This document shows, in pieces, positions 4,553-31,768 of a DNA stretch of 64,000 nucleotides. The position numbers and the translations under genes were made by a program. The stretch is from Candidatus Hydrogenedens sp. (GTDB lineage: Bacteria; Hydrogenedentota; Hydrogenedentia; Hydrogenedentales; Hydrogenedentaceae). Each line of letters opens with the position of its first letter. Position 1 is the first letter of the stretch. The stretch spans positions 192,001 through 256,000 of the forward strand of contig JBMFRC010000003.1 of assembly GCA_049968235.1 (NCBI GenBank), given 5' to 3'. The notes below the pieces were generated by a model. The model searched no databases and was not told the origin of the DNA. It saw only the letters and a program-made list of their open reading frames with translations.

Positions 4553-7500
4553 TCAAGTATATTTAGCTTCGGGATGGAAAGAAATAACCGCAGCAGTAGT
4601 GCAAGTAGGATGAAATTGTCCGGATTCCAGTAAAGAAACACCGATGGGATCCCCTCCACCGAGTATATTCAGGATTGTTTCATTCATCATTATATTGGTC
4701 ATACCGGGATAGCCTGGCGACCAGCGTCTCCCATGTTCATGGGGTATATGGAGTAAGTCCTGTAGATGTCGATGGATATATTCCGCAGTATCTTCCGCAA
4801 TACGGTCTCCTAAACCTTGAAGAAATAAGGAGGATTCGCTGTTTCCCTGTTCTTTGAAATATGCAAGTCCCTGTTCTATCGATGGTCCTGCGGTGCAAAC
4901 CTGAATACCGATTACATCCCATTCATTATCACGAATAGAGCGGAAGTATTGAGAGCCCGAAACGAGGTCTTTTTCTCCGGCCCCAATGACCGTTGTAAAT
5001 TCAATCTTTCCTAATATTTCATCTAAATTCTCTGGATCATAAACAAGCACCCAATTATCATCGGATTTTGCGGGGAGTAGTCCATATATCGCCTGAGGTT
5101 CTATCCATTTTTTTTGTTCAGTAAGCGATGTCCATTTATTAAAGAGTAGTTCCAATTCTTCAATTATATGTCCCGCCTTCTCCTGACTGGTTTTCCCTCC
5201 AAATTTCCAGTTCAGTGAGAATAATGTCTGTTTATCTATATATTGCACGAATTTAGATAGAGGTATACGGAAAATACGGTGGCGGAATCGTGGAGATTTT
5301 GGGTATTGAGGGAAAGGAGTTGAAATGATACGACGGGGTAAGTTTAACAATTTCTGCTCTTCTTCTTGAAGACGCTTCGTTGCTTGAAGGTATCGCTGTT
5401 TTAAGGCTTCTCTATTTTGCTGGTATAGTTTATCGCGTGTTTCTGATGAAGTGGTTATCTGATTCATAATATTAACGCCGTCCATTGCTGTTCGGCAATA
5501 GAACACATCCGCCCGTATTTTACCTATATTGTCCTGACCCATCATTGCCACAAAGGCAGTATGCCGTGGCGTTACCGCAGCACCTCCTGTAAGGATAGGA
5601 ATATCCAGTCCTTGTTCTTTGCACATGCGTGCAACGGTTATCATATGATTTGCCGTTTGTACTAAAAGTGCAGACATACCAATGGCAGTGGCATTATGTT
5701 TTTTTGCCTGGTCAATAAATTCCTGTAAGGGCACCATAACTCCCAAATCAATGACTCTGTATCCGTAATTTTCAAGCAGTGTTTTGGTCAGGTCTTTACC
5801 TATGGAATGCACATCTTGATAGACCGTTCCTAAGACAATGGTTCCGCGGACGGTATCTTCCGATTGTTCTCGTTTTTCTCGTTTTGCTTTATAACGCAGG
5901 TAGCCCTCAATAAAGCCCATGGCTTGCTTCATGACATCTGCAGAACGGAGAAGATGGGGCAAGGACACTTCGCCTTTACCGAACAAATCGCCCAATTCTT
6001 GCATGGCGGACATCAAGTAGTCGCTGACAAAGTTTAGTGGCTCATGTTTTTCCAATGCTTTTGCGACTTGTGGGACAATTAAGTCCTGATATTCATATAT
6101 AAATCCTTGAAATTCAACTTGTCCTTTTGCATGTTGTTTTAAACCATCTTTTATCTTTTCGCAGATAGCCATCTCCAGAGGTAGTTCATCGTAGTTACTT
6201 TTTTTGACCGTCTCTTTTTGTTTTAGCGATAATGAGCGTTCCTCTAATATTGCGAAAGATTCCATATCTCGCTCAAAAATAATTTTTTTTGCGAGCCGGT
6301 AATCCTCTGGGTCAAGGTTTTCAACAAACACATAATGTTGTGGATTTAATATTGCGGAGTGGAGACCGCGTTTTCGTGCTTCATCTAAGAAAACCGATGT
6401 AAGTACCTTTCGCATGTGAGGCTTTTGGGCTAAGCCATTGGTTAGGTTTCCGACACCTATAATTGTGAAAGCATCCGGTAGTTCTTTTCGTACTTGTTCT
6501 ATTCCCTGTAAGGTTTCCAGAGCATAGTTTTGTGTTTCATTGGGCTCTGCTCCGATAGGAAAGACATTCACGTCAATAAACAAGCGGTGTGTCGGGACAC
6601 CGTAGTCTCTTGCTTTTTCAACAATTTGTTTTGCAAGTGTAATTTTTCGTTCTACTGTATCCGCAGGACCTTTGGAATCTGTGCAAAGAGCCACATAAAA
6701 ACAACCGAAATCCTTTGTAGGTGGTAAAAGGATGTCTAATTTGGTTTTTCCTGCTTCCACTTCTTCCAGAGATATGGAATTCAAAATAGGCACACCGGCG
6801 TAATGATGAACCGCTTCTATTAAAGCATCCGGCTGAAAAGAATCAATACACATTGCCCCTTTAATATCTGCACTAATCTGGTGGACCACTCGGGATAGGG
6901 TTTTAACAGTGTTTACATGGTTGGAATCCATGCAAACATCAATAATCTCGCATCCTAAATCGTTAATTTGTTCTCGTGCTACTTCTTCGAGAGCATCCAT
7001 ATCTATTCCATTATCTATTTCGACTGCTTCTCGGACTTTTTTAGAACCACGAACATTCAAACGTTCCCCTATACGAATAAGGGAGCGTTCTGCATCGAGA
7101 GGTACTGCATTTTGCACACCTGCAATGAAAATTGTATCAGAAGGTTTTCGGGGAGCAGGTTTTTTGTCTCTTAATCGTTCTACCAATTCTGCAATATGCT
7201 CCGGTCTTGTACCACAGCAACCGCCAACGATATTTAGTCCATACTCTAATGCGAGAGAACTTAAAATCTCCGCAAAAGGTTTCGGCTCAAACCGAAACAC
7301 TGTTTTCCCTCCTTCCGATTGGGGTAACCCCGCATTCGGTATCGTGCTTAAAGGGACATGTGCATAACGGGACATTTTCTCCACAGCGGTTTGCATCAGG
7401 TCAGGACCTATGGAACAATTAATACCAAAAACATCAACACCTAATGCTTCCATACTAACGATAGCGGAATGGATGTCTGTGTTAAAGATTTGCATACGGG

Positions 7501-8179
7501 CAAAGGGGTCTACTGTAACCTGTGCTATTACAGGGACATGTTTTCCGCACTCTCGCATGGCGTCCCGTGCCCCAAAAATACCTGCTTTCAGTTCCAGAAT
7601 ATCCTGTTGGGTTTCAAATAATATTACATCCACGCCCCCATCTAATAAGCCTTTTATCTGAATACGGAAATTTTCTCGTATCTCTCCAAAAGTTGATGGA
7701 GTTAATCCTGCACGCGAAAAAGTCAATACACGATTGGATGGTCCTACGGAACCTAAAATGAAAAGCGGTCTGCCGTCATATTTCTTTGAGTTCCGATATT
7801 CTTCGCGTGCTTCACAGGCAATTTCAGCCCCACGACGGCTGAGGTAATAACTCCATTCCTTATGGGTAATTTTCTGGAGGGTTATATTATAAGGATTGGC
7901 GGGAAAGATTTTTGTGTCCAGTTCTGTAAAATCGTATTCCGAGAGACGTAGATAGGATGCTCCGAAGGTATTGGTCTCCACAGCACTACTACCCGATTCA
8001 AAATAGGTTCGATGAATAGATTTCATTGCTTCTGGTGTGGAGAAATTTATTAAATCTGTAAGCATTCGATAAGGCTCACCACCGTAATACTCAGCACCTA
8101 AATTCAGGTCTTGCACCATTGTGCCTGTGGCACCATCAATAATTAAAATTTGTTGTTTGATATAATCCAGAAATTGCAT
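4553..8179 (-). CDS. metH: Cobalamin-dependent methionine synthase
   Basis: 1208 aa. The domains run homocysteine-binding, pterin-binding, B12-cap/B12-binding (DVHSIGKDL), then the AdoMet activation domain. Confidence 0.9.
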   Translation of the reverse strand: MQFLDYIKQQILIIDGATGTMVQDLNLGAEYYGGEPYRMLTDLINFSTPEAMKSIHRTYFESGSSAVETNTFGASYLRLSEYDFTELDTKIFPANPYNITLQKITHKEWSYYLSRRGAEIACEAREEYRNSKKYDGRPLFILGSVGPSNRVLTFSRAGLTPSTFGEIRENFRIQIKGLLDGGVDVILFETQQDILELKAGIFGARDAMRECGKHVPVIAQVTVDPFARMQIFNTDIHSAIVSMEALGVDVFGINCSIGPDLMQTAVEKMSRYAHVPLSTIPNAGLPQSEGGKTVFRFEPKPFAEILSSLALEYGLNIVGGCCGTRPEHIAELVERLRDKKPAPRKPSDTIFIAGVQNAVPLDAERSLIRIGERLNVRGSKKVREAVEIDNGIDMDALEEVAREQINDLGCEIIDVCMDSNHVNTVKTLSRVVHQISADIKGAMCIDSFQPDALIEAVHHYAGVPILNSISLEEVEAGKTKLDILLPPTKDFGCFYVALCTDSKGPADTVERKITLAKQIVEKARDYGVPTHRLFIDVNVFPIGAEPNETQNYALETLQGIEQVRKELPDAFTIIGVGNLTNGLAQKPHMRKVLTSVFLDEARKRGLHSAILNPQHYVFVENLDPEDYRLAKKIIFERDMESFAILEERSLSLKQKETVKKSNYDELPLEMAICEKIKDGLKQHAKGQVEFQGFIYEYQDLIVPQVAKALEKHEPLNFVSDYLMSAMQELGDLFGKGEVSLPHLLRSADVMKQAMGFIEGYLRYKAKREKREQSEDTVRGTIVLGTVYQDVHSIGKDLTKTLLENYGYRVIDLGVMVPLQEFIDQAKKHNATAIGMSALLVQTANHMITVARMCKEQGLDIPILTGGAAVTPRHTAFVAMMGQDNIGKIRADVFYCRTAMDGVNIMNQITTSSETRDKLYQQNREALKQRYLQATKRLQEEEQKLLNLPRRIISTPFPQYPKSPRFRHRIFRIPLSKFVQYIDKQTLFSLNWKFGGKTSQEKAGHIIEELELLFNKWTSLTEQKKWIEPQAIYGLLPAKSDDNWVLVYDPENLDEILGKIEFTTVIGAGEKDLVSGSQYFRSIRDNEWDVIGIQVCTAGPSIEQGLAYFKEQGNSESSLFLQGLGDRIAEDTAEYIHRHLQDLLHIPHEHGRRWSPGYPGMTNIMMNETILNILGGGDPIGVSLLESGQFHPTCTTAAVISFHPEAKYT

Positions 8180-8312
8180 AGATACTTTCCCGGGAACACA
8201 AGAAAAAAATTGGAGGTTTAAATAATATCATAATAAGGGGTTATGATTGTCTAATCTGTCCGGCGGGTCCGACGAGTTAAATGAGTTGGACAGGTCAAAC
8301 AGGTCCGATGGG

Positions 8313-9479
8313 TCAGACTAAAGGCAAAGCATTAAAATGCTCCGGTAATAGAACAAGATGAATTTCTTCGTAACCGAAGCGGGATGTATTAAAAACGATT
8401 CCTGAATTGTCCGTTAAAAATGATGCATGCGGATGCACTTTAATGTTATTTCCTATTTTGCCAGAGACAAGTAATCTCCGTTCCTTTTTGTCCGGGTCTA
8501 TCAACCAGATATTTCTGTCAAAATCATCACCCAGAACCCACTTAAAATCATGACTACCGTGAGTATGCCATGCAGGGTATTGAGATAATACATTCATCAT
8601 ACTTTTGCTCCCTTTTTCTCTATCTGTCTCTGCTACACCGTGAGGTAATTTTTTATGAACTTCATCATAAGGCCAGATGGTAAATAAAGCCCGCTCCTTG
8701 CCCCACCATACCTCATGAGTTATCCAGAGATTGTCATGTTCTACAAAGAAGGGTTCTGCCTTACGAGTTTGTTCTGACCAGCACCATGTGCGTTGAGGAC
8801 CATCTCCGCCTGTTTCCCAACAAAACATAACCAGGTCTGTGTTCCAAAAGTTGGGCTGAACATGTCCTATTTTGAAGGGCATCTGTGCACATTCTTCCCA
8901 TGTGCCTTCCGGAATACTCATCCGACGTAGGACACTTTGTTCTTTTCCTTCTTTGTGTGTAGCACAATATAACCATTTCTCATCTGCTGAAATTCCAATT
9001 CCCCCTATCTGTGTTCCAAATTCATCGGGATAAGTTCCTATTTCCGTTCTGCTCCCATCCATCTCTTGTTTGCATACTTTATTCCCGTTAAAGAAATAAA
9101 CCCTTTCTGTATCCCATGATAATGAAAAATTCCCTATATTTGTTTCTAACACAGGAACAATTTTTTTTGTGGTTCTTTCTAAACGATGTAATTGTAATTT
9201 GCCTTCAGAGCGATCTGAAAAAAAGTAAAAATGTTCACAGGATTTTCCCCACATAGGATGGGTTTGATATATAGTTGTATTTTTCGAAGGACCGTTAACA
9301 ATTCTGTATATCCTGGCTCCTGTTGTTTCATCTTCATACGACTCGAATTCGTCCCATACATTGTGAGGCTTCGTTGAAGTTACCGGATTTTGTGTATAAG
9401 CCACGTTTACAACAGGTAATATAAGGGTAGATGCAAGAAAACTACGACGGGTAAGATGTATTTTATTTTCTCTGAACAT
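8313..9479 (-). CDS. TAT-secreted oligogalacturonide lyase (Ogl/PL22)-like beta-propeller protein
   Basis: TAT motif RRSFLAS. It is 388 aa like Yersinia Ogl. The C-terminal VHPHASFLTDNSGIVFNTS resembles Ogl THPHPSFTPDNKQVLFTS. Confidence 0.5.
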   Translation of the reverse strand: MFRENKIHLTRRSFLASTLILPVVNVAYTQNPVTSTKPHNVWDEFESYEDETTGARIYRIVNGPSKNTTIYQTHPMWGKSCEHFYFFSDRSEGKLQLHRLERTTKKIVPVLETNIGNFSLSWDTERVYFFNGNKVCKQEMDGSRTEIGTYPDEFGTQIGGIGISADEKWLYCATHKEGKEQSVLRRMSIPEGTWEECAQMPFKIGHVQPNFWNTDLVMFCWETGGDGPQRTWCWSEQTRKAEPFFVEHDNLWITHEVWWGKERALFTIWPYDEVHKKLPHGVAETDREKGSKSMMNVLSQYPAWHTHGSHDFKWVLGDDFDRNIWLIDPDKKERRLLVSGKIGNNIKVHPHASFLTDNSGIVFNTSRFGYEEIHLVLLPEHFNALPLV

Positions 9480-9500
9480 ATAAACTTCCTGTCAGTTAGG

Positions 9501-10673
9501 TTATGGGGTGAAATCTATGGATGGGGTCAATGAAAGTATCCAATTTTTTATTAATTTTATAGCATTTTCTACATCTGTCAATGAGACAATTTCTACGGGT
9601 GTATGCATATAACGATTGGGAATACCAATAAGTCCTGTGGCAACGCCTTTACGACTTAATTGAATTGCATTTGCATCGGTTCCTGTGGCTCGCGGTGCAG
9701 GCATAAGTTGATAAGGGATTTTCTGATTTTGGGCTATTTTTATTAAACCTTCAAGCACTTTTGGATTGATATTAGGTCCTTTATCAAGAATAGGACCTTT
9801 TCCCAATTTAATTTCAGCATATCGGGCTTTGTCAATTCCCGGATGGTCAGTTGCCCAGCCGACATCAACTGCTATGGCGGTATGGGGTTCGCATGCAAAT
9901 GCACTTGTAATAGCGCCTCGTAAGCCAATTTCCTCTTGAACCGTAGTAACGCAATACACAGCTACTTTCAGTTTATTTTTTGGCAGACTGCGTATGGCTT
10001 CAAGACAGACGAAAGCACCAATACGGTCGTCCAATCCACGCGCAGAAATCAAGTTGTTTTTGAGTTCGCGAACAGAAACATCTAAAGTAATCGGGTCGGC
10101 TACAGATACTATTTTTTCTGCCTCTTTCTTGCTCGTAACTCCAATGTCAATCCATAATTCATATAGTTCGGGAGTTTTTTCTCGTTCTTTCTCCGGCGTT
10201 AGATGAATGGGCTTTCTGCCAATAACACCATATACAGGACCTTTTGCTGAGTGTACTACTACTCTTTGTCCAGGAAGCACAGCGGTATCTACACCGCCGA
10301 TAGATACTCCATGAATAAAACCATTATCATCGATTGAATTAACCATCAGTCCAATCTCATCTACATGTCCACAAAGCATAACTCGCAAAGGTGCGTTTTT
10401 ATTGATTACAAAAAATTGGTTTCCATGAACATCTTTATAGATGTAATCGGCATAGCCGGTCATATATTCTTTACATTTTTCCTGAATTTTGACTTCAAAT
10501 CCCGAAGGACTTGGAGTACTAAGTAAATCATAGAGAAAAGATTTTGATGCAGTTGATAACATGGCAGTAATCCTTTGTTCTTTGCTATAAACTAACATAC
10601 AGGGAACAAGCAGAACAAGTGAAAAGGATACAATGAAGGCTAAAAAGCAGATATAAAAAATTTCTATTAACAA
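9501..10673 (-). CDS. M42 family peptidase (FrvX/TET aminopeptidase-like) with an N-terminal TM anchor
   Basis: HVDEIGLMV and QEEIGLRGA metal-binding motifs are present. There is an N-terminal hydrophobic helix. Confidence 0.7.
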   Translation of the reverse strand: MLIEIFYICFLAFIVSFSLVLLVPCMLVYSKEQRITAMLSTASKSFLYDLLSTPSPSGFEVKIQEKCKEYMTGYADYIYKDVHGNQFFVINKNAPLRVMLCGHVDEIGLMVNSIDDNGFIHGVSIGGVDTAVLPGQRVVVHSAKGPVYGVIGRKPIHLTPEKEREKTPELYELWIDIGVTSKKEAEKIVSVADPITLDVSVRELKNNLISARGLDDRIGAFVCLEAIRSLPKNKLKVAVYCVTTVQEEIGLRGAITSAFACEPHTAIAVDVGWATDHPGIDKARYAEIKLGKGPILDKGPNINPKVLEGLIKIAQNQKIPYQLMPAPRATGTDANAIQLSRKGVATGLIGIPNRYMHTPVEIVSLTDVENAIKLIKNWILSLTPSIDFTP

Positions 10674-10925
10674 TTAATTGTTGACAAAAATATAAAATAA
10701 ACAAAATACTACCCCTATTCTTAAATAACAAGGACCTGCAGAACAAAAATGTTTTATATCTAACAATCTATAATTTTTTTATCACCTCGTAATTTATTAT
10801 ACCTCAATTCTCAAAATTTTGCTTGAAAATTTAACTTTTTCTGTAAAATAAATCCTTATATTCCATAGATATATACAAATAGACGAAAATTTTGTTACAA
10901 AAATTTAAATTTTTTAAAATTTTAT

Positions 10926-10954
10926 TTGACAAAACGGGTTAATTCGTGTTAAAT
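10926..10954 (+). promoter_or_regulatory. Sigma-70-like promoter candidate TTGACA-N17-TTAAAT upstream of the M23 peptidase/bactofilin pair
   Basis: ttgaca at 10926-10931, a 17-nt spacer, and ttaaat at 10949-10954. It lies ~90 nt upstream of the GTG start at 11046, in an AT-rich intergenic region. Confidence 0.3.
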
Positions 10955-11045
10955 TTGAATTTACCTTAAAATTGAAAATTGAATTAATAGATATATATAA
11001 ATTGAGGAAAGGGAATAAACCTTTTTCTATAAGGAGCCGAATCGC

Positions 11046-12059
11046 GTGAAATCGTGGACAATAATCAGGCTTCCTAAAAAGGAAGGTGAGAAAATCCATG
11101 TAAGGTTATCGCCGGGCGTATTTGGTTTTATTTTATTTTTAATTGCGGTGCTTACATTCTTTACTTCCTTTTTATATACCCGCCAGCATATTATTTCTAC
11201 ACATCTGTCGGAATTAAAGCAAATAAACCGCAATTTGGAATATGCAACGGGTAATGGAAATACTGGTCAGGCAGTTGCAAATGGCGTTTCTGAAGAGGAA
11301 TTGCGACGCATAGAGAATCAACTTCGTTCAGAATATGAATCCACAATAGCGGTGATTACATCACAATTGAATGAATTGCTGGAAATAGAGACCAAAGCAC
11401 GGCAGGCAACGGGTCTAACTCCGAAATACAAGACGCCGGCGGTGGATACTACAAACAGGAACGAGGGGGGAAAAGGAGGTCCAGCAGGGAAACCTTTTAA
11501 CACGGAGTTTCAAGTAAATCGTAACACCATAAGCGTTCCCACCTTTTTACATAGATCCAATCGACTTTCGGCAGACTTAATATTACAGGAAATTGCGTTA
11601 CGTAAAATAGGACTGCAGGATTTGCTCAAAGGGGTAGAGGCAAAAAATGTTAAGATTGAGCGTACACCAAATAGTTGGCCTCTTGCGAGACGGATGGGTA
11701 AGTTGACGTCCTATTTTGGATATCGTATAGACCCATTCACGCGGAGAATAAAACATCATGATGGATTGGACATTTCAGCACCTTACGGCACGCAGGTAAT
11801 ATCCGCTGGTAAAGGGACGGTAAGTTTTGCGGGGCGTGAAGGGGATTATGGGAAGATGGTTATTATTGACCATGGCGATGGTATGCAGACTGCATATGCT
11901 CATCTATCACAGATTCATGTTACTGTGGGTCAAAAAGTGGAAAAAGGACAGGTTATCGGTGCAGTAGGGAGCACAGGTAGAAGTACAGGTCCGCATTTAC
12001 ATTTTGAAGTCCGAATTGGAAAGCAATCCGTAAATCCGTTAAAATACTTGAGTAGATAA
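11046..12059 (+). CDS. LytM/M23 family metallopeptidase with an N-terminal TM and coiled-coil region
   Basis: HHDGLDISAP...GDYGKMVIIDHGDGMQTAYAHL...GSTGRSTGPHLHFEV. GTG start with an AAGGAG Shine-Dalgarno 9 nt upstream. Confidence 0.8.
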   Translation: MKSWTIIRLPKKEGEKIHVRLSPGVFGFILFLIAVLTFFTSFLYTRQHIISTHLSELKQINRNLEYATGNGNTGQAVANGVSEEELRRIENQLRSEYESTIAVITSQLNELLEIETKARQATGLTPKYKTPAVDTTNRNEGGKGGPAGKPFNTEFQVNRNTISVPTFLHRSNRLSADLILQEIALRKIGLQDLLKGVEAKNVKIERTPNSWPLARRMGKLTSYFGYRIDPFTRRIKHHDGLDISAPYGTQVISAGKGTVSFAGREGDYGKMVIIDHGDGMQTAYAHLSQIHVTVGQKVEKGQVIGAVGSTGRSTGPHLHFEVRIGKQSVNPLKYLSR

Positions 12060-12127
12060 CAATTGTTGGCTTTTTAATAAATCGGTCTTTTATAAAAACC
12101 AAGTGAATTAAAGAGTAGGAAAGTATT

Positions 12128-12505
12128 ATGTTAGATGTAAGAAAGAAAGGTCCTGGTGAAATGGATGTAAAGAGTGTAATTGGTCCGGGCACAGTAGTAA
12201 ATGGTGATATAACATCAGAAGGCTCACTCCGAATAGAAGGAGAGGTCATCGGTAAGATCACCAGTAAAGATACTGTTGTAATTCATGATAACGGAAAAGT
12301 TAAAGCAGAGATTCGGGGACAGCAGGTTATCGTAAGCGGTGAAGTCCAAGGAAATATCTTTGCAACGGAGCGATTGGAAATTACCGCTTCCGGTAGAGTT
12401 ATTGGGGATATTACTGCTCCCCGCGTTAGTATTGCAGAAGGAGTCGTGTTTGAAGGAAAATGTACCATGAAACCCCCTTCATCTCCGAAATCTCAGCAGA
12501 AGTAA
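12128..12505 (+). CDS. Bactofilin (DUF583 polymer-forming cytoskeletal protein)
   Basis: 125 aa of beta-helical repeats: VNGDITSEGSLRIEGEVIGKITS...VSGEVQGNIFA...ASGRVIGDITAP. Confidence 0.8.
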   Translation: MLDVRKKGPGEMDVKSVIGPGTVVNGDITSEGSLRIEGEVIGKITSKDTVVIHDNGKVKAEIRGQQVIVSGEVQGNIFATERLEITASGRVIGDITAPRVSIAEGVVFEGKCTMKPPSSPKSQQK

Positions 12506-12538
12506 AAGAGAGTATTCAAGTCTGATAGGTCGGATGTA

Positions 12539-13015
12539 TCAGGTACTATTATCTTTCAATTTCATTTTTTTTAGTTTCCTCCAGAGTGTGTTTCTGCCAA
12601 TACCTAATCTGCGTGCTGTTTCTGAACGATTAAAATGACATTCTGCCAGAGTTTTTAGTATGGTTTCGGTTTCCAGTTCCATGAGCGTTACGGATTTTTT
12701 TTCGAGCATAGTTTTACCCGTTTTCCATTGTCCAAGGGCTCTTTGTATCATCATGGCTACTTCATCCGGCTGGAAAGGAATAAAAATATATCCATATACT
12801 CCTTGTCTCATTAATTCTACCGCCTGAGGTATTTGTTGTGCTGAAGCAAGAACGAGCGTGGGTTGATTTTCTGCATGTCGCAATGCAAACGAATAATCAT
12901 CGGTAATCAATACATCAGCGGAATCGTTTACAATAACGTATCCATATGCCTCAATGAGCATTTTCAGAGTAAACTCGTTGATAGGTTGTTGAATAACTAA
13001 TTTTATACGAGCCAT
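12539..13015 (-). CDS. Small regulator with a receiver-like (apparently non-phosphorylatable) domain and a Fis-type HTH
   Basis: The C-terminus ETILKTLAECHFNRSETARRLGIGRNTLWRKLKK is an HTH_8/Fis fold. The N-terminal receiver fold has QQ in place of the acidic pair and no AAA+ domain. Confidence 0.45.
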   Translation of the reverse strand: MARIKLVIQQPINEFTLKMLIEAYGYVIVNDSADVLITDDYSFALRHAENQPTLVLASAQQIPQAVELMRQGVYGYIFIPFQPDEVAMMIQRALGQWKTGKTMLEKKSVTLMELETETILKTLAECHFNRSETARRLGIGRNTLWRKLKKMKLKDNST

Positions 13016-13102
13016 GTAAACAATCCTTTTACTTTCCTTTTTTTATACATAGTATAATACATTCCAAAAAGAATTAATATAGAAGGGAACTATCGGAAAT
13101 TT

Positions 13103-14503
13103 ATGTCTCAATCCGTTTATGAAAATACTACTGCCAAACATTTACTATGGGTAGAAGCCATTCGTGAAGTGTTCTATATGTCCTGGCCTATTGTGTTAGG
13201 TTCCCTTTCCTATACGGTTATGGAATTCTGTGATAAATGGATGGTCGCTCAATTAGGAACGGTATCTCTGGCGGCGGTCGGTTCTGCAGGAATATGGTCC
13301 TATACGATGAGCACATTACTGTTGGGTATTGTCGGTTGCACAGGGACATTCGTGGCACAGTCGTATGGTAAAGAAGTGTGGAAAGATTGTTCGAGGTATA
13401 CATGGCAGGGAATTTATCTGGCATTGTTCTCTATCCTGTTGGCAGGGGTATTGTTCGTTTTTTCAGAGTTGTTGTTTTCATGGATGAAGCACAGTCCCGA
13501 AGTAACCCGCCAAGAACTAATTTATTTCCGTATCCGATTACTGGGCTATTTCCCGATGGCTATGGGTTCCGCTTTAGCATCATTTTTCCCTTCTATCAAC
13601 AAACCTCGTGTTCCCATGTATTCTGCCATTATAGGAAATATCTTAAATTTAATATTAAACTATATTCTGATTTTTGGTAAATTAGGATTTCCACGGCTGG
13701 AAATAGCTGGCGCCAGTTATGCTACTGTAATCTCGCAATGGACGCAGACATTAATTCTATTCTTTCTCTTTCTGAAACCGAAATTACATCAAAAATTTGG
13801 GACACGGACATATCATCATTTTGATTTACGACGGATGAAGGAATTAATACGAATTGGGATACCTGCGGGTCTATCTATGTTTTTAGATATTTGTAATTGG
13901 AGTATATTTACCAGTTTCATCGTAGGTAGGTTTGGAGATGTTTCCCTTGCATCCCACAATGTAGCCATCAGTTTTATGCACTTGTGTTTTATGCCTGCAG
14001 TTGCTGTGAGTATTGGTATATCTGCCATTGTAGGGCAGTGGTTGGGAAGGCGTGAAGTGCAGATAGCCAAACAACGGGTTTATGTAGCACTGGCGCTTTG
14101 TATGGGGTATATGGTAACAATGGGTATTATTCTTGCCGTTTTTGGGGGTAAACTTATTTACCATATATTTAGTAAAGACCCGGAGGTTGTCCGTTTTGGA
14201 CATCGACTATTAATTTTGGCTGCTTTATTTCAAGCATTTGATGCCGTTAATATTATTTGTTTAGGTGCCTTGCGGGGTGCTGGCGATACCCGCTGGGTTA
14301 TGTGGGCAATGGTTATCAATGCATATTGCCTTTTCCTCCCTCTGGCAATTATTATGGGCTTCATTTTGGGTTGGGGTGCTTTTGGTTCCTGGATTTCTGC
14401 TACTATTTACATTGCTGTTTTAAGTATGACACTCATATATCGTTTCCTTTCTGAAAAGTGGACGAAAATTATTATTTTTTCGGAACAAGTGCCAACTCAA
14501 TAA
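13103..14503 (+). CDS. MATE family efflux transporter
   Basis: 466 aa with ~12 TM helices and a duplicated 6-TM architecture typical of NorM/MurJ-like MATE proteins. Confidence 0.75.
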   Translation: MSQSVYENTTAKHLLWVEAIREVFYMSWPIVLGSLSYTVMEFCDKWMVAQLGTVSLAAVGSAGIWSYTMSTLLLGIVGCTGTFVAQSYGKEVWKDCSRYTWQGIYLALFSILLAGVLFVFSELLFSWMKHSPEVTRQELIYFRIRLLGYFPMAMGSALASFFPSINKPRVPMYSAIIGNILNLILNYILIFGKLGFPRLEIAGASYATVISQWTQTLILFFLFLKPKLHQKFGTRTYHHFDLRRMKELIRIGIPAGLSMFLDICNWSIFTSFIVGRFGDVSLASHNVAISFMHLCFMPAVAVSIGISAIVGQWLGRREVQIAKQRVYVALALCMGYMVTMGIILAVFGGKLIYHIFSKDPEVVRFGHRLLILAALFQAFDAVNIICLGALRGAGDTRWVMWAMVINAYCLFLPLAIIMGFILGWGAFGSWISATIYIAVLSMTLIYRFLSEKWTKIIIFSEQVPTQ

Positions 14504-14633
14504 AACTTCTATTTAAGATTTGCTTTTTATTTTATTGTCGGTTTTCAAATCTATGTTAAATGTGGTATTATGAAATTTAATGCAAATGTGGAATGTTCAG
14601 AAAAGATAAAACCATTATTAGAAGGAGCAATAT

Positions 14634-15320
14634 ATGAATTACAAAAGGACACTGTCAATAATGTTCACAATGATTATTTTTGTGTTCTCAATTATGATGT
14701 TTCTTAAAGCAGAGGACTCAAAATCTGCAGAGAAAGGCGATTGGATTTCATTATTTGATGGGAAATCATTACAGGGTTGGGTTCAATTTATTCCTGACCC
14801 CAATGCAGACCCTTCAAAAACATGGATGATAAAAGACGGAGTTATTCTTTGTACCGGGAAGCCAGCCGGTTATATTCGCACAGACAAAAAATTTGGGAAT
14901 TATCAGTTACAATTGGAATGGCGTTGGGCAGGCTCTCCCGGAAATAGTGGCGTCCTGCTTCATGTTCAGGATAAAGATGAAGTCTGGCCTAAATCTATCG
15001 AGGCACAACTCATGCATAAGAATGCGGGAGATTTCTGGGTAATTGGGGGTACAGATTTTGAGGAGCATCAGAAACACGCAAGCAAAGATGATGACCGTCG
15101 TGTGCCAAAGCGGGAGAAATGTAGTGAAAAGAAGCCTGGCGAGTGGAATCAATATGATATTTGGTGCGATGGGGATACCATTCGTGTTTTTGTAAATGGT
15201 GTATTACAAAATGAAGCACATAAATGCACCGTAACAGAGGGTTATATTGGATTACAAAGCGAAGGGGCCCCTATTGAATTTCGTAATATCAAATTAAGAA
15301 AGTTAGAACCCAAAAAGTAA
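14634..15320 (+). CDS. DUF1080 (3-keto-disaccharide hydrolase-like, concanavalin-like fold) secreted protein
   Basis: It has a signal peptide and the motifs WISLFDGKSLQGW, GYIRTDKKFGNYQLQLEWRW and GYIGLQSEGAPIEFRNIKL. Confidence 0.7.
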   Translation: MNYKRTLSIMFTMIIFVFSIMMFLKAEDSKSAEKGDWISLFDGKSLQGWVQFIPDPNADPSKTWMIKDGVILCTGKPAGYIRTDKKFGNYQLQLEWRWAGSPGNSGVLLHVQDKDEVWPKSIEAQLMHKNAGDFWVIGGTDFEEHQKHASKDDDRRVPKREKCSEKKPGEWNQYDIWCDGDTIRVFVNGVLQNEAHKCTVTEGYIGLQSEGAPIEFRNIKLRKLEPKK

Positions 15321-15503
15321 CCATTCAGAAAGTAATTTTTATCAATTTTGTTTTGTTGTATAATTCTAAAAGTAAAGATATAACTCATTTCTAATAAGCA
15401 AGTTGTGTAAGTTAAAATGGATGAAAATAATTTTTAACTTAAAAAAGAGAAACGAAATGAGTATTCAATGTAATATACTTATAGGAGTAAAAAATAACAT
15501 ATA

Positions 15504-15908
15504 TTGAAGGAAAACACAATGAAAACTTTCTTTTCTTTCCATTGGATATTTACTTCCCTGTTATTACTATGTATTATGGTATTTTTAACAGGATGCCCCA
15601 AACCGGATTTGCAGGTATCCGCATTATCACATCATTTTGGCGGGGATATATATACCGGTACTATAGAGACGGACTGGGAGTTTCAAATTTGGAACGCCGG
15701 TGACAAAAACTCTACCCTATTCTATAAAGTGGAACCTACAAGAAATTGGATTCTTGTAAATCCAGATTCCGGAAAAATTGCTCAATCTGATAAACCGGTA
15801 AATATTTCTGTTCATATCAACCGTAGTAACAATCAAAAGGGATTGCCTTCTTTTGCCACAGGATATATTAAAGTTTCAGGAGGTGGGAAAAAAAAACAAT
15901 TACAGTAA
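15504..15908 (+). CDS. Lipoprotein, N-terminal segment (lipobox LTGC); it ends in an A9 homopolymer and is probably the 5' part of a longer gene
   Basis: Signal peptide plus a Cys lipobox. The stop falls 3 codons after a run of 9 A at 15888-15896. The -1 frame is open from 15872 into the next ORF. Confidence 0.45.
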   Translation: MKENTMKTFFSFHWIFTSLLLLCIMVFLTGCPKPDLQVSALSHHFGGDIYTGTIETDWEFQIWNAGDKNSTLFYKVEPTRNWILVNPDSGKIAQSDKPVNISVHINRSNNQKGLPSFATGYIKVSGGGKKKQLQ

Positions 15909-15967
15909 CAACAGTTCCTAATTTCTATACTGAAGTATTTGGTGGATTTTATAATCGACCTTTTGAT

Positions 15968-16573
15968 TTGTCCAATACCACATTGGTGTTTATACCGGAC
16001 AGTAATAGCCTTCATTTCTATAAGCAGGGAATAAAGAAAAATGTCCAACAATTTCCTCAACAAACACCAGATATAGGACAACCTGCCTTTTTTTCAATTA
16101 GGGACCCATTTTATATAAAATCCACAATAGCCCCGATACCTTTTTATGGAGTTAAATATGATGATATTTACATTTCCAGTAAAGGATTTATCTCTTTCGG
16201 AGCAGAGGGATTGGAACCTACAAGTGTGGGCAGACATTTTGCATATCCACAAATTTCCCTTTTACCTCTGGATGTATTGAAAGCAGATGAAGATGGCGGT
16301 GTTATTTACACTATTCTACCTCAAAAGTTAGTTATTTCATGGATAAACATTCCTCTTGCACAAAATCCGACAATCGGTGAAGATGGTAAGGCATATAAAA
16401 ACAATATTCAGGTTGAGTTGTTCTATGATGGGAAGATTCAGATAACTTATCTTAGCATTGATCCGAAACAATTTGTCGCTGTTGTTGGTTTATCTTGTGG
16501 TGGGGGTGATGGAACAAACCCTCCTGTGCAGGATTTTGTTATCAGTGATTTATCAAGTGCTCCGGAAATATAA
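15968..16573 (+). CDS. Hypothetical protein, probably the C-terminal part of the preceding lipoprotein gene (frameshift at the A9 run)
   Basis: The frame is open upstream to 15872 and overlaps the end of 15504-15908. The track shows a TTG start only. A hairpin terminator follows. Confidence 0.4.
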   Translation: MSNTTLVFIPDSNSLHFYKQGIKKNVQQFPQQTPDIGQPAFFSIRDPFYIKSTIAPIPFYGVKYDDIYISSKGFISFGAEGLEPTSVGRHFAYPQISLLPLDVLKADEDGGVIYTILPQKLVISWINIPLAQNPTIGEDGKAYKNNIQVELFYDGKIQITYLSIDPKQFVAVVGLSCGGGDGTNPPVQDFVISDLSSAPEI

Positions 16574-16586
16574 ATTTTCTAAAATA

Positions 16587-16625
16587 AAACGCTCCGAACA
16601 CCTGAGTTGGGAGCGTTTTGTTTTC
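16587..16625. terminator. Bidirectional rho-independent terminator between convergent genes
   Basis: aaacgctcc-gaacacctgagttg-ggagcgttt followed by tgtttt on the + strand. On the - strand it is followed by ttttatttt, which would terminate rpsU. Confidence 0.55.
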
Positions 16626-16662
16626 GATTATCTCTTGTGCTTGTACTAAATGGAACAAATTT

Positions 16663-16866
16663 CTATTGAACTGTTTCGGATTCCATAATAGAACGGGATA
16701 CCGCTTTGATTAGCCTTCTACGGCGGCGTTCCGATGGTTTTTCATAATGGCGGAGTTCACGAAGTCTCTGCATAATACCATCTTTATTGCACTTTTTCTT
16801 AAAACGCCTCATAGCCTTATCAAAAGACTCTTCCGGCTTAATTCGAACCTTTGTCAAAGAAATCAA
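16663..16866 (-). CDS. rpsU: 30S ribosomal protein S21
   Basis: 67 aa, MISLTKVRIKPEESFDKAMRRFKKKCNKDGI...RRRR, typical of bS21. Confidence 0.9.
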   Translation of the reverse strand: MISLTKVRIKPEESFDKAMRRFKKKCNKDGIMQRLRELRHYEKPSERRRRRLIKAVSRSIMESETVQ

Positions 16867-17090
16867 CCTCCTTTCAATATAAATTTATGAGTTGAAAAGG
16901 ATTTTTATTATATAACAAATAGGGGTAATATTTCAATAGATAATCTATTTTTATTTTTACTTCTATTTATGCTAAAATAATAAATCAATGTAGTGGAGAT
17001 GGGGTTCTCCTAAATCGCCGATGTGGCTGATGACTCCTACCTGAAATATCCTCAATGTAACTCTCTTTATTTTTATGAAAGGAATATGAC

Positions 17091-18284
17091 ATGGAACATC
17101 TATATCTATCTGCATCAATCTGGTTATTTCTCGCCCTAACCTCCGCTATCATTGCATATTACTTGAAGGTTTCTATTGCTTTGATAGAGATTTGTGTAGG
17201 TATTATCGCAGGATATATAGCGACCCATTTTCTACAGACCGATTTGCTTAATAATAATGAAGAATGGTTAAAATTTCTTGCAGGTAGTGGAGCCATTTTT
17301 CTTACTTTCCTTGCAGGTGCTGAATTAGAGCCTACTGTGATTAAAAATAAATGGAAGGAGGTTCTTCTTATCGGCTTGATTGGATTTTTTTCTCCATTTG
17401 TCGGTTGTTCATTGATTGCTCATTTTTTGTTAGGGTGGGACCCGAGAGCCAGTTTGCTATGTGGTGTAGCCCTATCAACTACTTCAATGGCTGTGGTTTA
17501 TGCGGTGATGATTGACACAGGATTAAATGTTACAGAATTTGGGAAGGGCATATTAGGTTCTTGTTTTATCAATGATATCGGGACCGTTCTCGCTTTAGGA
17601 ATCATCTTTGCACCGTTTACCTACAAGACCTTTATCTTTATTACTATAACAATTATTTATCTTGTTCTTTTCCCGTTTTTTACCAACCATCTGACGAAGG
17701 TATATGGGAATCGAACTGCTGCAATTCGAACCAAATGGATTTCATTCACACTGTTCGGATTAGGTGCATTAGCACTATGGTCGGGCAATGAAGCAGTCTT
17801 GCCTGCCTATATAGCGGGTATGGTCCTTGCAGAATTCAGTCAAAGAAATCCTATATGGTTACGAAGATTACGAACTTTGACCATCGGATTTCTTACCCCA
17901 TTTTATTTTTTAAGGGCAGGCACACTTGTATCCGTTCCTGCATTAATTTCTGCACCATTTCTTATCGTTGCCCTATTAGGGGCAAAAGTAGTTTCCAAGA
18001 TATTTGGACTATACCCTTTTATCATACAATTTCGGAAAGAAAAAAATGAACGATGGTATTACACCTTGATGATGTCCACAGGACTCACCTTCGGAACTAT
18101 CTCTGCTCTATTTGGATATTCTCATAATATTATCAATACAGAACAATATTCCTATATAGTAATTGCTGTTATTGCAAGTGCTGTAATTCCAACTATGTTT
18201 GCATCCTACCTCTTCACACCGAGACATCTTTTATCTCAGAAAATTCATGTCTCAAAATCTATACATGAATTATCTGAGGAATAG
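17091..18284 (+). CDS. Cation:proton antiporter (Na+/H+ exchanger family, CPA1/CPA2)
   Basis: 397 aa, polytopic, with a GVALSTTSMAVVYAVMIDTG-type motif. Confidence 0.65.
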   Translation: MEHLYLSASIWLFLALTSAIIAYYLKVSIALIEICVGIIAGYIATHFLQTDLLNNNEEWLKFLAGSGAIFLTFLAGAELEPTVIKNKWKEVLLIGLIGFFSPFVGCSLIAHFLLGWDPRASLLCGVALSTTSMAVVYAVMIDTGLNVTEFGKGILGSCFINDIGTVLALGIIFAPFTYKTFIFITITIIYLVLFPFFTNHLTKVYGNRTAAIRTKWISFTLFGLGALALWSGNEAVLPAYIAGMVLAEFSQRNPIWLRRLRTLTIGFLTPFYFLRAGTLVSVPALISAPFLIVALLGAKVVSKIFGLYPFIIQFRKEKNERWYYTLMMSTGLTFGTISALFGYSHNIINTEQYSYIVIAVIASAVIPTMFASYLFTPRHLLSQKIHVSKSIHELSEE

Positions 18285-21249: not shown

Positions 21250-23493
21250 ATGGTAGAAAGAATTTCAGTAACAATCGGTACCAAAGAAGTTTCATTTGAA
21301 ACGGGGAAAATAGCAAAGCAGGCACAGGGGGCTGTAATATGCCAATGTGGTGATACGATGGTGCTATCCACTGCTTGTGTGGACCTGAACACGAAATTGG
21401 ATGTGGACTTTTTCCCGCTGACTGTTGATTATCGCGAAAAATTTTATTCCGTCGGTCAAATTCCCGGCAACTTTTTCCGTCGGGAGTCCAAACCTTCGGA
21501 GCGTGAAGTTCTCGTATCGCGATTGACAGACCGTCCTTTAAGACCTTTATTCCCCAAGTCTTTCAAGAACGAAGTTCAGGTATGTCAAACGGTCCTGTCC
21601 GCAGATAATGTTCATGACCCGGATGTATTGTCCATTAACGCTGCTTCTGCGGCACTCCATATTTCGCCTATACCATTTTTAGAGCCTATTGGTGCGGTTC
21701 GTATCGGTTATATTGATGACAATTTTGTTGTAAATCCCACCATTGCGGAAATGAAAAACAGTCTAATTGATATTGTAGTTGCAGGGACAGAAAGCGCCAT
21801 TTGCATGGTGGAAGGTATGGCGAAGGAAGTTTCAGAACAATTAATGATAGAAGCCCTTGAATTTGGTCATATCTGGATAAAAAAACTGGTTTCCGCTATT
21901 GAAGAGTTACGAAGTAAATGTGGTAAGGAAAAATTACATGTTGAAGAGCCTGTTAAGAACGAAGCGTTAGAACAAGAAATTCAGCAATGGCTTTCCGGAA
22001 AAATGGAAGGTGTCTTATTCCAGACTGTAAAGCAGGAACGTAGGGAAGGGATTAGCAAACTTAAAGAAGAATTGCTTGCTTTTTTAAAAGAAAAATATGG
22101 GGAAGAACAATATCCTGAAATAGAAATACAAGCAAAAGAAATTTATGAAGAAATGGTTCGTAATACATTGCGGGGACGGGTTATTAAAGAAAATCTTCGT
22201 GTAGATGGTCGTAAACTGGACGAGATTCGTCCTATCAGTATAGAAGTGGGGGTTCTCCCGCGTGCTCATGGTTCCGCATTGTTTACAAGAGGCGAAACTC
22301 AGGCTTTAGTAACAACGACATTGGGAACCAGTCAAGATGAACAGCGGTTGGATGAACTAACCGGTGATTCGATGAGTCGTTTCTTCTTGCATTACAATTT
22401 CCCGCCATGGTCTGTAGGGGAAGTGGGACGATTAGGTGCACCTGGAAGACGCGAAGTCGGGCATGGAAAATTAGCGGAACGTGCTCTAACATGTGTTCTT
22501 CCATTCGACCCGAACGATTCCACCGTTGTAACGGACCCGACAACATGTTTCCCTTATGTCGTTCGTGTAGTATCCGACATAACCGAAAGCAATGGTTCGA
22601 GTTCAATGGCATCTGTTTGTGGTGGGTCATTAAGTTTAATGGATGCAGGTGTCCCCATTAAGTCTCATGTGGCAGGAATTGCTATGGGCTTAATCAAAGA
22701 AGGGGAAGAATTTCGTGTCCTGACGGATATCTTAGGAGATGAAGACCATCTCGGAGATATGGATTTTAAAGTCTGTGGTACCCGTAAAGGAATTACTGCG
22801 TTCCAGATGGATACAAAGATTAAAGGTGTTCCTCGTTCTGTTATGGAGCAAGCCCTTGAACAGGCACGACAGGGACGCTTGTTTATATTAGATAAAATGG
22901 AAGCAGTTCTACCTCAACCACGCCCAGAAATTTCTCCGTATGCTCCACGAATATATACCATCAAAATTGACCCGGATAAAATCCGTGAGGTTATTGGTCC
23001 CGGAGGAAAAGTTATTCGTGATATACAGATGAAAACAGGGACAGAGATTACTATCCAGAACGATGGGACAGTATTGATTGCTGCGGTTGATAGCGAGAGT
23101 GCGGCCAAAGCAACCGCGATGGTATCGGGTATTACCGCAGAAGTTGAGGTTGGAAAAATCTATCATGGAAAAGTTACACGAGTTATGAACTTCGGTGCCT
23201 TTGTCAGCATACTGGGAAATCGAGAAGGTCTCGTGCATGTATCCGAATTGGCTCCCCACCGTGTCCAGGAAGTTACAGATGAAGTGAATATAGGTGATGA
23301 GATAGATGTGAAAGTAATTGAAGTAGATAAATTTGGTCGTATCAATCTTTCCAAAGTTCAGGCGGATATGGAAATGGGAAAAATTCCCAATGCACCGAGG
23401 AATAAAAGTAATCATTCCCAACCGCATTATGAAAGAAAGGACCGGGGGGGAAGGAATTTCAATCGTAACGACTCCAATAGACATCGGCGTTAA
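21250..23493 (+). CDS. pnp: Polynucleotide phosphorylase
   Basis: Two RNase PH domains followed by KH and S1 domains. The rpsO-pnp synteny is conserved. Confidence 0.95.
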
Positions 23494-30047: not shown

Positions 30048-30352
30048 TATTTTATTTCTTCACTCTGCCCTATTATTCAGTACATTGCATATATTGTATC
30101 TGGCTCATTTTTATTCCCTGTTAGTGAGACACTACCAATACTTTTCCATTACAAGCAGAATACCTCTTCGGTACTCCATTTTTCTTGTATGATTGTGGCA
30201 AAGAAGTTCTCTTTTTTGCCTGTGCTGATTGTTAGTTGGCGGTAATAGGGTGGCTATTTTTACTTTTCTTTATTAACTGTAATAAACTATCTTATTATCT
30301 GTGCTTCAATAGAGTAAACAATAACAATAACTTACAAGAAGGAAAGATAACA

Positions 30353-31768
30353 ATGAAAAAGAATGAATGGTCAAAAATGACACGAAGGGCATTTTTAGCC
30401 ACATCCACAACAGTAGTAACAGCGGGTGCTTTTGCACAGACCCCGTCCACCCAGAATACGGCACAGGTTGTTCCCCGTAAGATTTCTCCGAACGAGAAAT
30501 TGAATGTAGCTGCGATTGGTGCTGGTGGGAAAGGACTTTCTGATATTATGAGTTGCTTTAAGTTGGGACACAATGTTGTTGCTCTTTGCGATGTAGATTG
30601 GAAACGGGCTGAAGAGGCATTTTATCGTTTGCCGAAAGCGAAAAAGTATAAAGATTATCGTAATATGTTAGAAGAGATGAAGGAAATTGATGCGGTTACG
30701 ATTTCTACTCCCGACCATTCTCATGCCCCTGCTGCATATATGGCAATGAAGATGGGGAAACATGTATATGTTCAGAAGCCGTTAACGCATACGATTGCAG
30801 AGGCGAGATTGCTTACCCTCACGGCACGCGAGACAGGTGTCGCAACACAAATGGGGAATCAGGGGCATTGTGGTAATGGAGTGCGTCAATTGTGCGAAAT
30901 GATTTGGAGTGGTGCTATCGGTAATGTGAAAGAAGTTCATATATGGACACATCGTCCGGTATGGGATAATCAGGGAATGACAGAGCCATTACCGCCGGAA
31001 GTAACACCCGAAGATATGGACTGGGACCGCTGGATTAACTGTGCACCATGGCGTCCCTATAACCATAAATTGGCTCCGCATGATTGGCGAGCCTGGCAGG
31101 ATTTCGGTTCCGGTTCTCTGGGCGATATGGCTTGCCATATTATGGACCCGGCATACTGGGCGTTGAAATTGTATGAGGCACCGGAATTTTCTGTTGAAGT
31201 GGTCTTTCAGAAGGGACAAAATAGACAAACATTTCCGATTGCAACCACAGTAAAGTATTCCTTTGTGGCACGTGGCGATATGGGACCTGTTGATGTTTAT
31301 TGGTATGATGGACACTGGAAGGATGAAGCCACCGGTCAGGAAATCTATAATCGTCCCAAACGACCCGAAGGAGTGCCGGAGGATGAAGTATTGGGCGATG
31401 ATAATATGAATGGTTCCATGTTTATTGGTGATAAAGGCATTCTTACAGCAGGGGAATATGGTGGAGAACCGCGATTGGTTCCTTCTTCTTTGATGAAGGA
31501 TTATACCCTACCACCGCAAACGATTGAGCGTATCCCGATGGAAAGTCCATATTTTGACTGGCTTCGTGCTTGCAAGGAAGATAAGCCCGCCTGTTCGAAT
31601 TTTAATTACTCCGGTCCCTTCACAGAAATGGTGCAGTTTGGCAATGTCGTCGTCAAATCAGGTCAAAAGTTAATCTGGGACAATATTAACGGTGTTGTTA
31701 AAAATGTATCCGACCCGAAATCAATTATAAGTAAAGAATATCGTAAAGGCTGGGAACTTCCCTGCTAA
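30353..31768 (+). CDS. TAT-secreted Gfo/Idh/MocA family oxidoreductase
   Basis: TAT motif MTRRAFLATS. Rossmann GxGxxG (AAIGAGGKG) with the typical Gfo/Idh/MocA N-terminal NAD domain. The start was taken at the internal ATG (codon 40 of the tracked ORF). Confidence 0.75.
   Translation: MKKNEWSKMTRRAFLATSTTVVTAGAFAQTPSTQNTAQVVPRKISPNEKLNVAAIGAGGKGLSDIMSCFKLGHNVVALCDVDWKRAEEAFYRLPKAKKYKDYRNMLEEMKEIDAVTISTPDHSHAPAAYMAMKMGKHVYVQKPLTHTIAEARLLTLTARETGVATQMGNQGHCGNGVRQLCEMIWSGAIGNVKEVHIWTHRPVWDNQGMTEPLPPEVTPEDMDWDRWINCAPWRPYNHKLAPHDWRAWQDFGSGSLGDMACHIMDPAYWALKLYEAPEFSVEVVFQKGQNRQTFPIATTVKYSFVARGDMGPVDVYWYDGHWKDEATGQEIYNRPKRPEGVPEDEVLGDDNMNGSMFIGDKGILTAGEYGGEPRLVPSSLMKDYTLPPQTIERIPMESPYFDWLRACKEDKPACSNFNYSGPFTEMVQFGNVVVKSGQKLIWDNINGVVKNVSDPKSIISKEYRKGWELPC

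Follow-up and report, generated by a model that had tools for sequence, protein, structure and literature searches.

A probable recent frameshift allele of a conserved lipoprotein gene, with a newly formed A9 tract, in Candidatus Hydrogenedens

Two neighboring open reading frames (ORFs) in the 64-kb stretch of DNA analyzed here (the window) are the halves of a single conserved lipoprotein gene, and this gene probably carries a recent 1-nt deletion that shifts its frame and leaves a null or strongly hypomorphic allele (probability of ca. 0.65). The whole ancestral gene, a BACON plus putative NIDO-like lipoprotein gene, spans positions 15519 to 16573 of the forward strand and would encode 351 amino acids (aa) if intact. 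The window sequence differs from its orthologues by a 1-nt indel, both halves align to one protein, an intact conspecific allele differs at the site by the indel alone, and the resulting run of nine A (A9) is found in an independent assembly. A real and recent frameshift segregating in the population is the simplest reading of the locus, and it was absent from the options offered by the initial annotation.

The frame changes at positions 15888 to 15896 of the forward strand (codons 124 to 126 of 351), where the nine A, a homopolymer of hypermutable length within a coding region, are read in ...TCA GGA GGT GGG AAA AAA AAA CAA TTA CAG TAA.... The upstream frame, ORF1 (15519 to 15908, forward strand), encodes a truncated product of 129 aa ending in ...GGGKKKQLQ*, which is identical to the NCBI proteins MGC8737715.1 and MGC8846980.1 ("BACON domain-containing protein"). 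Although the ORF list gives TTG 15504 as its start, we took ATG 15519 as the true start, because the 129-aa MGC8737715.1 and all orthologues begin there. The premature TAA of ORF1 (15906 to 15908, forward strand) lies three sense codons past the A9. In the -1 frame, a TAA at 15869 to 15871 closes the 5' side, and the frame then stays open from 15872 to the TAA at 16571 to 16573. Its first start-like codons are TTG 15968 and TTG 15983, and a search for a Shine-Dalgarno (SD)-like motif 5' of these two codons found none at either. Judged from the sequence, both are nominal starts only, and the downstream frame lacks a credible start. From 15896 to 16573 (forward strand), this frame continues the ancestral protein with residues T127 to I351, that is, the last BACON strand (TITVTTV), the linker, and the putative NIDO-like domain.

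Direct reading of the sequence thus agrees with the initial annotation on the A9 itself, on the stop three codons after it, and on a -1 frame open from 15872 without a canonical start. It had also proposed that one added A, or a -1 slip, would produce a single lipoprotein of ~355 aa, and the tract-length series that we computed gives such a product at 351 aa with A10; A7 gives 350 aa, while A6, A8, A9, A11, and A12 give 128 to 134 aa. The A_AAA_AAA heptamer (15890 to 15896, forward strand) is, as had been stated, in phase for a -1 slip when the phase is computed from ATG 15519, and we regard it as a potential ribosomal slip site but not an evolved one. Within the Ser-Gly-Gly codons 5 nt 5' of the heptamer there is an SD-like AGGAGGT (15878 to 15884, forward strand). 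On sequence grounds, this motif, which encodes Gly-Gly, is a by-product of the coding sequence, since GGAGG-type sequence is also present in the unshifted orthologues.

A homologue search with the repaired protein as the query returned 16 proteins. Ten of them had 59 to 82% identity and lengths of 346 to 359 aa, five had 52 to 54% identity (including P0016, a 266-aa fragment at a contig end), and the remaining one was the 196-aa downstream half itself, deposited at NCBI under "Candidatus Hydrogenedens sp." The 15 orthologues (52 to 82% identity), from Ca. Hydrogenedens and relatives, are all single proteins of 345 to 359 aa except for the contig-end fragment, and all full-length homologues read through the junction in the alignment as GGGKEKVITVTTVPNFYTE. 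The question of fused orthologues, raised in the initial annotation, is therefore answered for this family: 15 of 15 are single ORFs, and none is split. At the DNA level, the junction of the 15 orthologous loci reads AAG GAA AAA GTA or near variants, with a longest A run of 3 to 5, and the A_AAA_AAA heptamer was absent from the site in all of them. A lipoprotein of this type at a size of ~350 aa is restricted to Hydrogenedentota.

Further evidence for a single gene comes from the segment at 15896 to 15967, located 5' of any start codon of the downstream frame. These 72 nt encode TITVTTVPNFYTEVFGG.YNRPFDL, nearly invariant in the family, and their 24 residues are among the most conserved of the protein; T131, T132, V133, P134, N135, T138, E139, F141, R147, F149, D150, and L151 are invariant or nearly so in the family alignment. 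The -1 frame between 15896 and 16024 would also yield the predicted tryptic peptide TITVTTVPNFYTEVFGGFYNRPFDLSNTTLVFIPDSNSLHFYK, whose first 24 residues lie 5' of any start codon of the downstream ORF. The gene order, with MatE, a 3-keto-disaccharide hydrolase, the lipoprotein gene, rpsU on the opposite strand, and a Na-H exchanger, is the same in the 82%-identical JGI contig L001, the one locus at which synteny among the orthologues was checked, and in the sister metagenome-assembled genome (MAG) contig L016 described below. ORF1 and the downstream ORF are one gene by ancestry, not two, and the high conservation of the -1-frame residues at 15896 to 15967 rules out an independent second gene. 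The NCBI pipeline did annotate two proteins, in two MAGs, as would be expected if a small BACON lipoprotein were followed by a separate protein of 196 to 201 aa starting from a TTG. However, the latter would be devoid of a signal peptide, no SD-like motif precedes either TTG, the 72 nt before the first of them encode nearly invariant family residues, and the split is found in no orthologue. We consider two independent genes scarcely credible and rejected them on the grounds of this conservation 5' of the TTG and of the intact allele in L016.

The architecture of the repaired protein can be described in some detail. A predicted lipoprotein signal peptide with the lipobox F-L-T-G-C covers 15519 to 15596 (forward strand), the codon of Cys26 being 15594 to 15596; the context ...MVFLTGC fits the pattern [LVI][ASTVI][GAS]C, and Cys26 is invariant in 15 family members. 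By sequence, the product is thus predicted to be a bacterial lipoprotein. For the BACON domain, we considered the Pfam entries PF19190 and PF13004. The only match above the cutoff was BACON_2 (29.4 bits versus a cutoff of 25), at residues 64 to 133, so that the match crosses the frameshift site, while the classic BACON (PF13004) scored 14.9 versus a cutoff of 25. The N-terminal domain, which resembles BACON-domain lipoproteins in passing BACON_2, is modeled with an Ig/PapD-like fold. The AlphaFold model of the intact allele (mean pLDDT of 73.5) has a helix at residues 2 to 23, corresponding to the signal peptide, followed by an Ig-like sandwich whose last hairpin is formed by strands 113 to 121 and 124 to 132 with a turn at 122 and 123. 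Given that the frameshift falls at codons 124 to 126, ORF1 loses the final Ig strand.

For the C-terminal domain, the model of the domain alone was too weak for a fold assignment, and Pfam NIDO (PF06119) gave no match to the window protein at an E value of ≤1. The family profile collected 1,151 representatives at an E value of ≤1e-10, many of them two-domain proteins of ~320 to 350 aa and many others giants of 1,000 to 7,000 aa, and single profile matches often span both domains. Among these relatives, P0023, P0040, P0045, P0069, and P0113 match the profile with E values of 1e-37 to 1e-86 and pass Pfam NIDO (28.5 to 64 bits versus 25) in the part that aligns with the C-terminal domain. This transitive link suggests a divergent NIDO-like extracellular domain, with distant relatives that pass PF06119 as NIDO-domain surface proteins do. 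The literature search on Hydrogenedentes lipoproteins found nothing relevant, and one for the accessions of the assemblies gave no hits. Downstream of the gene, between it and the convergent rpsU, there is a strong hairpin with a flanking A run and U run (16581 to 16624, unstranded), detected by folding (-24.2 kcal/mol; z = -6.6; matched by 0 of 200 shuffles) and missed by a simple terminator scan, which found nothing in the locus. It is likely a bidirectional intrinsic terminator closing a single transcription unit.

The origin of the A9 was revealed by a near-identical genome. By exact-sequence look-up, the 90% cluster of the product holds four NCBI proteins, that is, the 129-aa ORF1 product (in two MAGs), the 196-aa downstream product, a 184-aa partial downstream product, and an intact 351-aa "BACON domain-containing protein," MGC9052361.1 (P0019). 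The last one differs from the A10 reconstruction of the window gene by a single residue (KEK versus KKK). Its contig, L016 (JBMFLO010000007.1, from the conspecific MAG GCA_049971155.1), is 99.92% identical to the window over positions 5519 to 17838, with 12,321 aligned nt, 9 mismatches, and a single gap. This gap is a G at the junction (window position 15891), where L016 reads GGGAAAGAAAAAACAATT and the window GGGAAAAAAAAACAATT. The intact allele thus reads GGG AAA GAA AAA ACA (A3-G-A6), and the longest A run at the site in the sister strain is 6. Glu125 is conserved in ≥90% of the family, and therefore the G is ancestral; since the sole gap is this ancestral G, the window allele is a 1-nt deletion that created the A9 and not a change in tract length. 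The initial annotation had offered slipped-strand variation of the tract as one candidate, which does not fit an intact allele of A3-G-A6 instead of A10.

We propose that the window lineage lost the G from codon Glu125 (AAA GAA AAA ACA to AAA AAA AAA CA), an event that would have changed the reading frame and incidentally merged the A3 and A6 into the A9. This one-step deletion is favored, on simplicity alone, over a two-step route from G to A (giving A10) and then from A10 to A9; no A10 allele is on record in the exact-sequence look-up. The comparison covers three genomes of the species (A9 twice, A3-G-A6 once), with which either route would be compatible. No further inactivating mutations were observed downstream of the junction, an observation that at 99.9% identity is uninformative and would also be expected of a still-expressed gene.

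Given that indel errors are typical of purine stretches rich in homopolymers, we compared assemblies for signs that the true sequence might be A3-G-A6 (or A10), with the gene intact in the organism. The contig L017 (2,077 nt; GCA_049969095.1, a fragmented MAG) has the same A9, together with a T at 15770, as in the intact strain, and a private single nucleotide polymorphism (SNP) at 16507, both changes being synonymous. Because of this different SNP background, L017 represents an independent assembly and a third haplotype, the three being T15770 with the intact gene, T15770 with A9, and C15770 with A9. An indel census of the window against contigs of the sister MAGs, including two further contigs, gave 17 mismatches and one indel (the junction G) in 24,919 nt versus GCA_049971155.1 and 6 mismatches and no indels in 7,202 nt versus GCA_049969095.1. 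No other indel was thus found in the 32 kb compared, and all 58 homopolymers of ≥6 bases in these stretches (five of them of ≥8) had equal lengths between assemblies. The large ORFs of the window are all unbroken, for instance those of a 1,208-aa MetH-like protein and a 747-aa PNPase.

The three MAGs seem, from their accession ranges, to have been submitted together and may have gone through a common pipeline, a point in favor of an artefact. On the other hand, the third MAG resolves the G correctly, a missing G differs from a simple miscall of homopolymer length, and the high fragmentation of GCA_049969095.1 (contigs of 2 to 5 kb) suggests a short-read assembly. Judged from the assembled sequences, a sequencing, assembly, or polishing artefact is unlikely, because the A9 recurs on a different SNP background and the 58 homopolymers are concordant, and the sequencing error put forward by the initial annotation finds no support in the second assembly with the same A9 or in the 32 kb with no other indel. 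As far as assembled sequence can tell, the A9 allele is almost certainly real and recent, and the intact allele coexists with it in the same species-level population.

The other explanations put forward initially were a contingency locus and recoding. Homopolymer contingency loci of the type found in Neisseria, Haemophilus, Campylobacter, and Helicobacter show tract-length polymorphism both between and within strains, and the tract persists. Here, tract-length variants (n-1, n, and n+1) were sought among the three genomes, and only A9 (twice) and A3-G-A6 (once) were found; the tract was not retained in relatives, with 3 to 5 A in the 15 orthologous loci. Furthermore, the window holds one A9/T9 run, while dinucleotide-preserving shuffles gave 9.6 ± 4.2 and at least one in 100 of 100 shuffles. 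Such runs are therefore ca. 10-fold depleted in the 64 kb and not overrepresented; what exceeds chance is that the A9 falls exactly at the frame change of a conserved single gene. Such depletion has been attributed to selection against slippage-prone runs, for which nine nucleotides is a typical threshold (PMC1088944). An established contingency locus, one of the candidates of the initial annotation, was rejected, since the tract is not conserved (at most A5 in the orthologues), the sister allele is interrupted (A6), and A9/T9 runs are depleted. A nascent form of phase variation deserves separate consideration, in which the G changed to A first (A10, in frame, with E125K) and slipped-strand switching between A10 (ON) and A9 (OFF) then turned a surface lipoprotein on and off at the population level. 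The tract is of hypermutable length and A10 or A7 restores the full-length protein, the encoded surface-type lipoprotein belongs to the class in which phase variation is usually found, near-identical genomes carry both intact and broken alleles, and with three genomes a real A9/A10 switch could go undetected. We nevertheless find it rather unlikely: the sole ON allele seen is A3-G-A6 and not A10, a collection of 15 billion proteins contains no A10, A8, or A7 variant, the tract is missing from every orthologue, and a single A9/T9 run where 9.6 are expected indicates a genome that avoids such tracts rather than using them.

Evolved recoding, by a programmed -1 frameshift on A_AAA_AAA or by transcriptional slippage on the A9 at a fixed ratio of short to long product as in dnaX or tssM, could claim the correct phase of the heptamer, the AGGAGGT upstream, and a run of the length used by Thermus thermophilus dnaX and IS elements (PMC1088944). 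However, a stimulatory structure sought in the 94 nt downstream was not found (-15.6 kcal/mol; z = -0.52; matched by 63 of 200 shuffles), and an Rfam scan of 15000 to 17200 gave no match at the junction. The optimum SD spacing for -1 shifts of the dnaX type is ~10 to 14 nt, and here the SD-like motif, shared with unshifted orthologues, is just 5 nt from the heptamer. In addition, the 15 orthologues and the sister strain have single ORFs devoid of the tract, and the short product would lack a beta-strand of its only domain, which in the model makes an independent function unlikely. Evolved recoding is accordingly very improbable. The programmed -1 frameshift of the initial annotation was discarded because the two-frame arrangement is unique in the family and there is no stimulatory structure; programmed transcriptional slippage, for which the run length would by itself be sufficient (PMC1088944), was discarded because the run is strain specific and the short product is a truncated domain.

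Returning to the recent frameshift allele, its main effect would be loss of function, with a 129-aa product that lacks the final Ig strand and the entire NIDO-like domain. A minor amount of full-length protein with Lys125 may still arise from slippage of the RNA polymerase on the A9 or of the ribosome on A_AAA_AAA, and frame-restoring mutations of the A9, either back to A10 or by contraction to A7, could occur at an elevated rate. By analogy with known cases, low-level rescue by slippage or reversion to A10 is plausible. The A9 makes the allele potentially leaky and revertible, and there is no sign of its use. It is possible, if doubtful, that a slippery or contingency site is just arising here in a natural population, with a tract that is in part self-correcting and is reversible. 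In that case, what persists would not be a dead gene but a surface-protein allele with reduced or switchable output, yielding substoichiometric amounts of the E125K form.

Although the finding is ordinary in kind, it is of value as a correction of annotation and as a lesson in method. NCBI lists a 129-aa "BACON domain-containing protein" and a 196-aa "hypothetical protein"; each of these entries covers half of the same frameshifted gene, and they ought to be combined or marked as a pseudogene. As for the method, a homopolymer found beside a frame break is not necessarily an older switch; in this gene, the tract arose through the deletion itself. The distant orthologues alone would have suggested a change from A10 to A9, and only the near-identical genome showed that the tract had been created.

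Several known systems help to put this allele into perspective. It resembles contingency loci in having a homopolymer within the first third to half of a gene for a surface lipoprotein, with a length that sets ON or OFF, and is unlike them in that the alternative allele has an interrupted tract and the orthologues have none. With -1 frameshifting of the dnaX and IS3 types it shares an A_AAA_AAN-type heptamer in the 0 frame and an upstream SD-like sequence; unlike in those systems, neither a hairpin nor a pseudoknot follows the heptamer, the SD-like motif is wrongly spaced, conservation is lacking, and a shift would yield the ancestral full-length protein instead of an added isoform. A sense A run of ≥9 just 5' of a premature stop, with a conserved remainder in the downstream frame, is also found in tssM1 (A11), dnaX (A9), and disrupted ORFs with 9A or 9T (PMC1088944, PMC4256274). 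In these examples, nine A support ~50% slippage in T. thermophilus dnaX (PMC1088944), and A11 gives ~20% frame restoration in Citrobacter rodentium tssM1 (PMC4256274). Against this, slippage by the Escherichia coli RNA polymerase, which slips poorly on sense-strand A runs and prefers T runs, is undetectable below A8 (PMC6260861). Nevertheless, the tracts of tssM1, dnaX, and IS elements are retained and used, with both products functional or the tract conserved among IS copies, whereas the present tract is strain specific and missing from the sister strain, and the short product here amounts to a truncated domain. Another parallel is human DMD c.2281delG, in which A4GA5 becomes A9 and protein is rescued to ~15%, with A10 transcripts detected by direct RNA sequencing (PMC12946587). 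In both cases, a G lost from an A-rich stretch shifts the frame and makes a run in which one added A restores it, although in DMD the rescue was measured, while here the polymerase is bacterial and the allele is known from sequence alone. If slippage does rescue it, the allele would be a small natural example, from an uncultured phylum, of the mechanism known from tssM and DMD delG.

Across the lipoprotein gene (window 15519-16573, plus strand), three haplotypes could be told apart by the SNPs at 15770 and 16507, both of them synonymous, together with the junction at the poly-A tract (15888-15896). The window combines C15770 with the A9 run, the second metagenome-assembled genome (MAG) carrying A9 (contig L017) has T15770, A9 and A16507, and the conspecific MAG on contig L016 has T15770 with an intact gene. 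This pattern fits either an origin of the deletion on the T15770 background or recombination among the strains. Upstream of the tract, a perfect Shine-Dalgarno-like AGGAGGT lies within Ser-Gly-Gly codons (15878-15884) and ends 5 nt ahead of the slippery heptamer A_AAA_AAA; since a GGAGG-type sequence is found in the orthologues too, this motif is probably incidental.

The C-terminal domain of the lipoprotein (15920-16570) belongs to a large and mostly unannotated family (P0020-P0168 among the proteins cited), for which the family profile search gave 1,151 representatives at an E value of ≤1e-10. It also occurs within giant proteins of 1,000 to 7,000 aa, often beside BACON-like repeats. The tie of this family to Pfam NIDO is transitive only, and the Pfam model seems to miss the bacterial branch that carries the domain.

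The stretch that separates the lipoprotein gene from rpsU (16663-16866, minus strand) contains a hairpin of 44 nt (16581-16624; folding energy of -24.2 kcal/mol, z = -6.6), bordered by an A-run and, at its opposite flank, a U-run. This hairpin is a candidate bidirectional terminator; a consensus terminator scanner did not pick it up. Farther along, the Rfam scan placed a fluoride riboswitch (crcB motif, RF01734) at 16986-17046 on the plus strand, with a bit score of 57.1 that exceeds the gathering threshold of 34 (E = 1.2e-14). Its position ca. 45 nt upstream of a gene of the Na+/H+-exchanger family (17091-18284; 397 aa) suggests that this transporter is under fluoride regulation. As for the GFO/IDH/MocA-type oxidoreductase, the mechanical ORF at 30236-31768 (plus strand) gives 510 aa from a TTG, versus 471 aa for the gene called in a sister MAG (contig L018, 8176-9591), probably a mere difference in the choice of start codon.

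In the PNPase ORF (21250-23493), a G7 run close to the 3' end (23444-23450) reads GGGGTGG in the same sister MAG owing to a substitution at 23448, making this a second site with a pure run in one strain that is interrupted in another, here with the frame unchanged. Over the whole window, A or T runs of exactly 8 occur 10 times, and a single run of 9 was observed versus 9.6 ± 4.2 expected from dinucleotide-preserving shuffles, i.e., ca. 10-fold rarer. This abrupt drop at a length of 9 agrees with an earlier description of slippage-prone runs being avoided genome-wide (PMC1088944).
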